Source of the DNA: a virus
Taxonomy: Duplodnaviria; Heunggongvirae; Uroviricota; Caudoviricetes
DNA length: 64,000 bases
Virus record (IMG/VR): IMGVR_UViG_3300008107_000010
Reading direction: 5' to 3' (one strand)
The position numbers were made by a program, and so were the translations under genes. Positions 15,131 to 15,486 of the stretch are shown here, piece after piece (positions within the stretch are counted from its first letter, which is position 1; each line of letters opens with the position of its first letter). The notes below the pieces were generated by a model. The model worked only from the letters and a program-made list of their open reading frames with translations, was not told the DNA's origin and did no database searches.

Positions 15131-15158
15131 ATAAAAAAATCCTGGCCGAAGCCAGGAT
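15131..15158 (-). terminator. strong intrinsic terminator
   Basis: 8-bp GC-rich stem atcctggc-cgaa-gccaggat, followed on the minus strand by TTTTTTTATT. Confidence 0.65.
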
Positions 15159-15486
15159 TAAATCTAACGGGATCGTGTTCGTACTATTCAGCTCGGCAGC
15201 TATATCTCGTTTAACGTCCTCGACTTCTGCTTCGACGGCCTACTCGACTTCAGCTGGTCTCATGCTCCTTCGTCTACAATGAGAAGTTGACGGCGCGCTT
15301 TTAGTTTTCAACCAGGGCGCTGCTTTCCGGGTCTCGTTAGAGAATAAGCTTGCGCTCTATTACATCTAACCTGATCATAGTAGTTTAGATACTTTTTGCA
15401 GTACCGATCCACCTGGTTCCATTTCTTATAGCGTAATAATTGTTGAGCTTAAAAATTTGCTGTAAGGAACCAATTTCTTTATATAT
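15159..15486 (-). ncRNA. candidate structured ncRNA (Y-RNA-like?) downstream of the Ro60-like gene
   Basis: GC-rich island in an AT-rich genome. Stops in all frames with no ORF above 15 codons. Bounded by a late-type motif at 15476-15486 and the terminator at 15131-15158. Complementary segments include 15401-15410 (minus GGATCGGTAC) with 15170-15184 (minus GTACGAACACGATCC), and 15414-15420 with 15466-15472. Confidence 0.3.
15476..15486 (-). promoter_or_regulatory. late-type motif (minus GATATATAAAG) directly after the Ro60-like stop codon
   Basis: Identical 11-mer to 5157-5167. Confidence 0.35.

Follow-up and report, generated by a model that had tools for sequence, protein, structure and literature searches.

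A conserved structured RNA beside a phage Ro60-like gene and its place in a family of candidate Y-RNA-like modules

The window analyzed here is a stretch of 64,000 nucleotides (nt) from a virus of the class Caudoviricetes (IMG/VR record IMGVR_UViG_3300008107_000010), in which all the features described below lie on the minus strand. It carries a gene for a Ro60-like protein of 479 residues (15487..16926, with the stop codon TAG at 15489-15487), which combines a helical-repeat N-terminal part with a vWA domain bearing the MIDAS (metal ion-dependent adhesion site) motif D271-x-S273-x-S275. Between the stop codon of this gene and an intrinsic terminator lies a region of 356 nt (15131-15486) without a conserved open reading frame (ORF), which an initial annotation had singled out as a candidate Y-RNA-like non-coding RNA. 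Comparison with relatives establishes that this region encodes a real, conserved and folded non-coding RNA, made up of two modules in tandem: a mini-module of 61 nt (15413..15473) and a large module of 241 nt (15170..15410).

Putative transcription signals bound the region at both ends, as the initial annotation had already noted. The 11-mer GATATATAAAG (15487-15477) overlaps the stop codon of the Ro60-like gene and ends ~4 nt before the first stem of the RNA, and its 8-mer core TATATAAA (15485-15478) occurs 16 times in the window. Despite a raw count that is not above that of shuffles, the position and strand of these copies suggest that the core acts like a phage promoter element: the coding strand has 15 of the 16, and no fewer than seven copies are located 16-33 nt upstream of long ORFs. 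At this same distance before the starts of long ORFs, and nearly always on the coding strand, the sequence (A/G)ATATATAAA(A/G) is repeated (for example at 19271, 22102, 37778, 44907, 50177, 53897 and 55956); it is a candidate phage promoter consensus. A sigma-70-family factor with regions 2 and 4 is encoded by the phage itself (19725-20345), and one is found at 437-1042, ~0.5 kb upstream of the Ro60-like gene, in the closer relatives L101-L103; such a factor might read TATATAAA-type promoters. At the other end a terminator scan identifies a strong intrinsic terminator (15131..15159), with a 9-bp stem AAUCCUGGC/GCCAGGAUU at 15159-15138, a UUCG loop and a U-run extending to 15131. This terminator is kept in all of what we term the group-1 relatives, with five covarying pairs.

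The compositional features that had first drawn attention to the region were likewise borne out: its GC content is 42.7% against 33.1% for the window, which places it in the top 0.3% of 356-nt windows, and the large module alone reaches 47.5%. Stops interrupt all frames; the longest complete ORF is 15 codons with an ATG start and 35 codons if GTG and TTG starts are counted, and none of these is conserved. ARAGORN detects no tRNA or tmRNA in the region, and Rfam searches, both at the gathering score and at E<=10, match it only with the terminator look-alikes SorY, SorX and BSnc120. Compared by blastn with 50,697 phage genomes, the region yields terminator-like fragments only, and no sequenced phage is close. 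Folding of the minus strand, which had been proposed as a check, gave no support, the single-sequence fold energy being no more unusual than that of shuffles (z = -0.67). Since thermodynamics alone is thus uninformative, the evidence for structure is comparative.

Many relatives of the Ro60-like gene were obtained from IMG/VR. In all those with ~80% protein identity, an ORF-free gap of 400-450 nt follows the gene, or follows a 121-residue ORF inserted after it, and this gap aligns with the window as conserved blocks alternating with variable ones. A pattern drawn from the most conserved block retrieved 44 loci with 31 distinct RNA sequences (the window's included) of 55-98% identity, and three protein look-ups contributed five more from closer relatives, for a total of 36 distinct sequences. 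The inserted 121-residue ORF, which has no Pfam match, lies between the Ro60-like gene and the RNA in L008, L011, L013, L014 (~4455-4820) and similar loci; the sequence upstream of the RNA differs in these (TAAATAAAAG), whereas AGATATATAAAG is kept in relatives whose RNA directly follows the gene. Insertions and deletions in the RNA are limited to the tips of hairpins, and their lengths are not multiples of three. In the alignment of the 31 sequences (A2), the proposed helices are 95.6% paired, as against 27-48% when their partners are slid, and eight pairs are altered on both sides. Their covariation score of 0.128 compares with 0.055 for shuffles, none of which attains it in 500 trials. We discarded a naive all-against-all scan for covariation, which proved too noisy in AT-rich, G-U-tolerant sequence. 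The alignment of relatives that the initial annotation had called for thus recovers at least six helices and an H-type pseudoknot that are kept by compensatory changes.

The mini-module is closed by an 8-bp stem (H1) formed by UUGGUUCC (15473-15466) and GGAACCAG (15420-15413), which encloses a variable loop and is followed on its 5′ side by the motif ACAGCAA (15463-15457). The complementarity previously remarked between 15414-15420 and 15466-15472 (GGAACCA/UGGUUCC) is therefore a genuine covarying helix, its outer pair being U-A in 21 sequences and A-U in eight. The large module is in turn closed by helix P2, in which GGAUCG (15410-15405) pairs with CGAUCC (15175-15170), an invariant ACGAA (15182-15178) being situated just 5′ of the second strand. 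P2 is paired in 100% of the 31 sequences, with a C-G pair in 21 replaced by A-U in ten (the variant GGAUAG/CUAUCC), and a third variant, GGAACG/CGUUCC, occurs in L101-L103.

Immediately following the 5′ strand of P2 is the hairpin H2 (GGUAC-UGCAAAAA-GUAUC, 15388..15405), where the motif takes the form ACUGCAA (15402-15396) in the window and ACAGCAA in relatives. The GUAC...GUAC of H2 is invariant in the 31 sequences, while its outer pair is G-C in 24, G-U in two and A-U in one. The initial annotation had joined the GGATCG/CGATCC pairing to a GTAC/GTAC helix across a 5-nt bulge; the first of these covaries as described, but we rejected the GUAC/GUAC extension, as most relatives have UCAC at that place and the 5′ GUAC forms the local hairpin H2 instead. 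A G-to-A change in L087 illustrates the point, since it retains the H2 hairpin and breaks the extension.

Further inside the large module is P3, a variable hairpin (15336..15371) with a stem of GUUAGA (15370-15365) and UCUAAC (15341-15336) and, nested in it, a GCAA tetraloop hairpin AGC-GCAA-GCU (15356-15347). The P3 stem is kept with at least ten unrelated sequences, among them GUUGGG/CCCGAC, GUUGGA/UCCAAC, GUCUAG/CUAGAC, AUCUG/CAGAU, GUUUGA/UCAAAC, GACUGG/CCGGUC, GCC/GGC and ACC/GGU. Next to it we find moderate support from the aligned sequences for an H-type pseudoknot (15295..15332), in which S1 would pair ACCCGG (15332-15327) with CCUGGU (15316-15311) and S2 would pair GCGC (15320-15317) with GCGC (15298-15295), the linker between the 3′ strands of S1 and S2 being A-rich. 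Within the window's subtype, S1 changes to AUCAGG/CCUGAU and S2 to GUGC/GCAC or UAC/GUA. The topology is kept in other subtypes, with S1 paired at 3/3 positions in 16 of 16 distinct combinations and S2 at 4/4 in 15 of 16, a result reached by none of 1000 partner permutations; this anchored tabulation with its permutation control replaced a noisy automated search of a 66-nt slice. The long-range helix P4 (15215..15292) then encloses the most conserved core: it reads CGUC (15292-15289) with GACG (15218-15215) in 17 sequences and AGUC/GACU in 14, with zero exceptions, and CAUC/GAUG in L101-L103. Finally, the hairpin P5 (AGCU-GCCG-AGCU, 15190..15201) is 100% paired, with three of its four pairs doubly changed among UUCC/GGAA, UUCU/AGAA and AGCU/AGCU.

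These patterns bear on the explanation that the region is non-functional, whether as a coding sequence in decay, as what is left of a decayed tRNA or mobile element, or as a GC-rich patch with complementarity by chance. A fold no more stable than shuffles and the want of a match to any curated RNA family would fit such an origin. However, the element is conserved at 55-98% identity among the 36 distinct sequences, substitutions are compensatory in at least six helices, length changes are confined to hairpin tips and are not in multiples of three, and there is neither a conserved ORF nor a tRNA or tmRNA signal. The covariation effectively refutes a non-functional remnant, including the degraded protein-coding one that the initial annotation had itself raised, and we regard this explanation as highly improbable.

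The reach of an nhmmer search with the group-1 alignment stopped at relatives of ~80% protein identity; hence, a signature and a covariance model were needed for the more distant ones. At loci where the protein is only 52-54% identical, two tandem structured elements follow the gene, each starting with GG-NNNN-R-NN-CAGCAA and ending with the complementary NNNN-CC-YGU, in the same layout as H1 and P2/H2 of the window. We accordingly defined a family of modules by a covarying terminal stem of 6-8 bp, ACAGCAA 2-3 nt after the 5′ strand of the stem, an A-rich 3′ junction, and a location next to a DUF2828/DUF7788 (Ro60-like) gene on the same strand. Across 44 protein-anchored loci, the signature search gave 38 matches on the strand of the gene against two on the opposite strand, with modules that range from 50 to ~260 nt and are found either upstream or downstream of the gene. 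A covariance model (R1) was built on seven mini-modules, all of them from distant phages (group 2, L035 and mycobacteriophage Kingsolomon). Over the 64-kb window, it has a single significant match (15474-15410, minus strand; 26.1 bits, E=0.0013), so that a model excluding the window's own clade recovers the mini-module as a family member. The large module fits the signature, being its sole match in the window in the signature search, and its stem covaries. Over 21 model hits the terminal stem is 95.8% paired, and seven of its eight pairs show changes in both partners.

Named phages extend this picture. R1 detects modules on the same strand beside the gene in Listeria phage P100plus, where three stand in tandem (best score 43 bits), and in Staphylococcus phage CF9, which has three; it also finds the modules of Felixounavirus phages, of which VpaE1 has four in the gaps between tRNA genes, and modules beside the gene in further metagenome loci. 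In mycobacteriophage Kingsolomon, three tandem modules come directly after a gene annotated as 'Ro-like RNA binding protein', whose product is 35% identical to the window protein. The signature alone identifies two modules in Enterococcus phage A2 and one in Cronobacter phage S13. In Campylobacter phage CP81, the signature finds two, the R1 score being below significance (15.5 bits, E=0.83); a 45-residue 'ORF140' that overlaps these two modules upstream of the DUF2828 gene (L095, 2867-3004) is probably a mis-call. The same-strand association thus spans phages of Actinobacteria, Firmicutes, Campylobacter and Enterobacteria as well as uncultured jumbo phages, and holds down to ~31-35% protein identity while the rest of the neighborhood changes. 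The terminal stem with its motif is the only element common to all modules, a pattern typical of a common protein-binding site.

The main alternative to an RNA acting in trans is a cis-acting part of a messenger: a structured 3′ untranslated region of the Ro60-like message, serving stability, autoregulation or processing, or else a leader or attenuator of what lies downstream. In most relatives, the RNA indeed begins no more than ~15 nt past the stop codon and no terminator parts it from the gene, the modules of other phages are placed directly upstream of the gene like a leader, and the promoter role of TATATAAA is itself putative. Yet the structure and the terminator are kept despite insertion of the 121-residue ORF between gene and RNA, and between the RNA and the following ORF there is a strong terminator. 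Moreover, the Felixounavirus modules are located between tRNA genes, the P100 array has its own promoter-like TTGACA/TATCAT and its own terminator-like hairpin, and modules of differing size are repeated in tandem in the manner of tRNA and Y RNA genes. On this balance, we consider a cis-acting role unlikely.

A relationship to Y RNAs is indicated by certain members of the family. The modules of L029, L027 and Kingsolomon match the Rfam YrlA model at 37, 26.9 and 37.9 bits respectively (E down to 6e-7), and enclose a T-arm, a closed acceptor-like stem and a D-arm in permuted order. The window RNA shares with Y RNAs its location near the Ro60-like gene on the same strand and its terminal helices formed from the 5′ and 3′ ends of a module, H1 and P2 each closing one module and both covarying. 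Where known Y RNAs have their Ro-binding motif, after the 5′ strand, the window modules have ACAGCAA or ACUGCAA. Through this terminal-stem homology to recognizably YrlA-like RNAs, together with the genomic context and structure, the Y-RNA-like reading of the initial annotation is supported: the comparative evidence favors the window RNA being a Y-RNA-like partner locus of the Ro60-like gene, with physical binding predicted. The window RNA itself is a member of neither the Rfam Y_RNA nor the YrlA family.

The likenesses and differences with characterized RNAs are instructive. YrlA is a known Ro60 partner and occurs in 22 phages (RF02553; Chen et al. 2014, PMC4201824). Like the window RNA, bacterial and mycobacteriophage YrlA is encoded beside a Ro60-type gene on the same strand, has a stem formed from its 5′ and 3′ ends, may occur in tandem copies and joins a binding stem to a variable domain. 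In contrast, the T-arm/closed acceptor/D-arm domain of YrlA, present in the members from L029, L027 and Kingsolomon, is missing from the window RNA, and no tRNA or YrlA signal is seen in it or in its group-1 and group-2 relatives. In its place the window RNA has an enclosed domain of ~220 nt with the predicted pseudoknot, and it has ACAGCAA for GNCGAA(N)G; the adjacent protein is of the DUF2828/DUF7788 type, whereas the partner of YrlA is a sequence-recognizable TROVE protein. In a second system, the Ro60 of Thermus phage phiLo binds two phage Y-like RNAs (Yrl1/Yrl2) and the host PNPase (PMC12135203; PDB 9l5y). The phiLo RNAs had been selected for a CGAA motif located in an internal bulge, and they are encoded upstream of the gene, unlike the window RNA, which is downstream and has ACAGCAA, and the two proteins have ~15% identity over their structural alignment. 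A phage that carries both partners is hence an already known idea, and a claim of novelty for it as such would be overstated (PMC4201824, PMC12135203).

We therefore favor, at a probability of about 0.72, the reading that the region specifies a non-coding RNA of ~340 nt that would serve as a two-module Y-like partner of the Ro60-like protein, with the stem and ACAGCAA as its predicted binding site. The RNA would probably be transcribed from its own phage promoter TATATAAA and end at the terminator 15159-15131. Its two tandem modules belong to one family, each closed by a stem from its own ends, followed by two bases and then ACAGCAA (ACUGCAA in the large module); the first is a bare hairpin, and the second encloses the multi-helix pseudoknotted domain. 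The terminal stem with ACAGCAA is proposed to bind the adjacent Ro60-fold protein at the place where GNCGAA or GGUCCGA sits in known Y RNAs. By analogy with Y RNAs, the 'business end' would be the enclosed domain, which varies and may recruit or imitate another molecule; it is a YrlA-type tRNA mimic in some related phages and has a different fold in the window.

Several observations weigh against this reading. On the protein side, the model of the Ro60-like protein is of only moderate confidence, with a predicted local distance difference test score (pLDDT) of 65 and a predicted template modeling score (pTM) of 0.51, and sequence searches from it do not reach TROVE or the Ro60 structures in the PDB. 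On the RNA side, Y_RNA (RF00019) and YrlA (RF02553) have no match in the window at the gathering score, nor at E<=10 over 14950-15650, so that the Rfam scan envisaged by the initial annotation came back empty for both. Even the YrlA matches of L029, L027 and Kingsolomon are below the gathering score of 69 bits, because their outer stem differs. The Ro-binding motif, which is GGUCCGA in animals and in bacteria GNCGAA(N0-1)G close to the 5′ end, is missing at its expected place. GUCGAAG and the invariant ACGAA do occur elsewhere in the window RNA, and a GNCGAAG Rsr-binding motif is present in the core at no fixed aligned position in the window's subtype, with a chance expectation of ~0.1 per RNA. 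As for the family itself, R1 cannot score the large module, whose 220-nt insert is too long for it to span, and the strict signature, taken by itself, has an expectation of 0.25 matches per shuffled window; membership of the large module thus depends on position, covariation and tandem arrangement rather than on a model score. The alignment (A4) that gives the pairing of the terminal stem over the 21 model hits was fitted to the model. Lastly, KVP40, Aeromonas phage PX29 and Pectobacterium phage CBB have the gene and no module within ~3 kb, so either gene and module need not go together or these genomes encode the RNA at another site.

Some of these points could also be read as favoring a structured RNA that is merely syntenic with the Ro60-like gene, such as a decoy or substrate of host nucleases, a ribozyme or an accessory of tRNA clusters. 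Its association with the gene is positional, the phages just named have the gene with no module nearby, several phages have modules inside tRNA clusters, and the large conserved core may be active in its own right. Against this stand the survival of the same-strand association across very different phages down to ~31-35% protein identity, the reduction of what is shared to a stem and motif of the kind expected for a protein-binding site, and the YrlA-like nature of some members, YrlA being an established partner of Ro60 (PMC4201824). An RNA unconnected with the protein is, in our estimation, rather improbable, and the Y-like partner of the Ro60-like protein remains the preferred reading.

The wider neighborhood provides a possible functional setting. 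A set of RNA-repair-type genes (9484..13044) lies 2-6 kb downstream, sharing the strand of the RNA and the Ro60-like gene; three ORFs without a Pfam match come between the RNA and these genes. Reading upward in coordinates, they encode an RNA ligase with a PHA02142 OB-fold domain (9484-10497; Pfam PHA02142+RNA_ligase), a T4 Rnl1-type RNA ligase (10658-11758; RNA_lig_T4_1), a P-loop kinase (11980-12393; AAA_33) and a metallophosphoesterase (12400-13044; Metallophos, 'phosphoesterase' in PHROG). RtcB or RNA ligase genes are also found near homologues at the P100plus and CBB loci, RtcB being the one by the P100plus homologue. In Salmonella, rsr-yrlBA-rtcBA constitutes an RNA-repair operon, while in Deinococcus radiodurans Rsr, a Y RNA and PNPase form the RYPER machine; Y RNAs tether PNPase to Ro60. 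The window resembles these systems (PMC7790460, PMC4201824) in having a Ro60-type protein, a Y-like RNA and repair enzymes in one neighborhood, and differs from the Salmonella operon in its phage rather than cellular context, in having Rnl-type ligases rather than RtcB, and in the three intervening ORFs. From this context we infer a functional tie, such that the ribonucleoprotein would probably act in RNA repair, RNA turnover or counter-defense during infection, together with the kinase, the phosphoesterase and the two RNA ligases.

Published work on phages with the same protein family as the window's offers pointers in this direction. In the Listeria P100-like phage CKA15, highly transcribed non-coding regions lie just upstream of the Rsr-like gene, and the DUF2828 protein (CKA15_055) was detected in purified virions by mass spectrometry at 57% coverage (PMC12282133). 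The gp130 homologue of Felixounavirus Bas63 counters the Ppl defense system, and some of the Bas63 'tRNAs' have been suggested to be Y RNAs (PMC11482910). Both groups of authors thus suspected Y RNAs near the gene, though neither paper defined the RNAs; we find that ACAGCAA modules occupy the unannotated spacers by the gene in phages of these types. In the Felixounaviruses, the modules are the gaps between tRNAs and not the annotated tRNAs themselves. The only region of CKA15 for which coordinates were published (26,236-26,727) is a different RNA: the module array (25,220-25,608 of OR088597.1) comes ~0.6-1.1 kb downstream of it. It is matched in P100plus (L093) by an unannotated gap of ~660 nt (1407-2066) with a promoter-like start TTGACA...TATAGT, corresponding to the top-transcribed non-coding region of CKA15; lacking the ACAGCAA signature, this gap may encode a second, different large non-coding RNA. 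In CBB (L096, 2938-4452), the DUF2828 protein is labeled a 'structural protein'. This label and the virion detection in CKA15 suggest that the DUF2828 protein may be packaged and delivered with the genome.

DUF2828 genes are present in at least 710 sequenced phage genomes, including Felix O1-like, P100/A511-like and KVP40-like phages and cluster L mycobacteriophages, though the RNA partners of their products have so far only been guessed at. The stem with ACAGCAA marks candidate partners in the unannotated spacers of many of these phages, and it encloses an interchangeable domain: a tRNA mimic, a bare hairpin or, as in the window, a large pseudoknotted fold. A modular logic of this sort has been proposed for Y RNAs, and it suggests that the same protein is aimed at different targets by different phages. 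A bolder and decidedly tentative extension, which we hold to be rather doubtful, is that the ~220-nt domain is a new 'effector' replacing the YrlA tRNA mimic, and that ACAGCAA-stem RNAs with DUF2828 proteins are a widespread undefined class of phage ribonucleoproteins acting in early counter-defense, with the swappable RNA domain setting the target. Such particles might shield or repair RNAs cut by host nucleases, or block Ppl and similar systems. That the ACAGCAA-stem family can be defined as an RNA class appears to be new, though the motif may have been noticed earlier; its breadth across DUF2828 phages, its bare mini-modules and the replacement of the tRNA mimic by the pseudoknotted domain of the window likewise appear to be new. 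The family is absent from Rfam 15, and its addition would improve phage annotation.

Certain minor observations concern the tRNA genes of these phages. Just downstream of the DUF2828 gene of Cronobacter phage S13 (L092, 4357-4599) are two annotated 'tRNAs' of 121 and 113 nt (tRNA-Ser and tRNA-OTHER), followed by the ACAGCAA module (4616-4748); their length may reflect introns, or they may be tRNA-like RNAs. In the more distant relatives L022, L027, L029, L035 and L036, the Ro60-like gene is found within large tRNA clusters, in which a tmRNA (86 bits) and a group I intron (57 bits) occur as well (L036, 736-1148; L035, 6847-7110). The window itself has a tRNA-Ser with a UGA anticodon (32608-32697), the single Rfam and ARAGORN match in it. 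Elsewhere the window encodes an Fpg/Nei-type DNA glycosylase (22602-23468) and a thymidylate synthase (6744-7871). Over 200 nt, the DNA of the latter gene is 81% identical to that of Flavobacterium phages, and no other part of the window has a near match in a sequenced phage.

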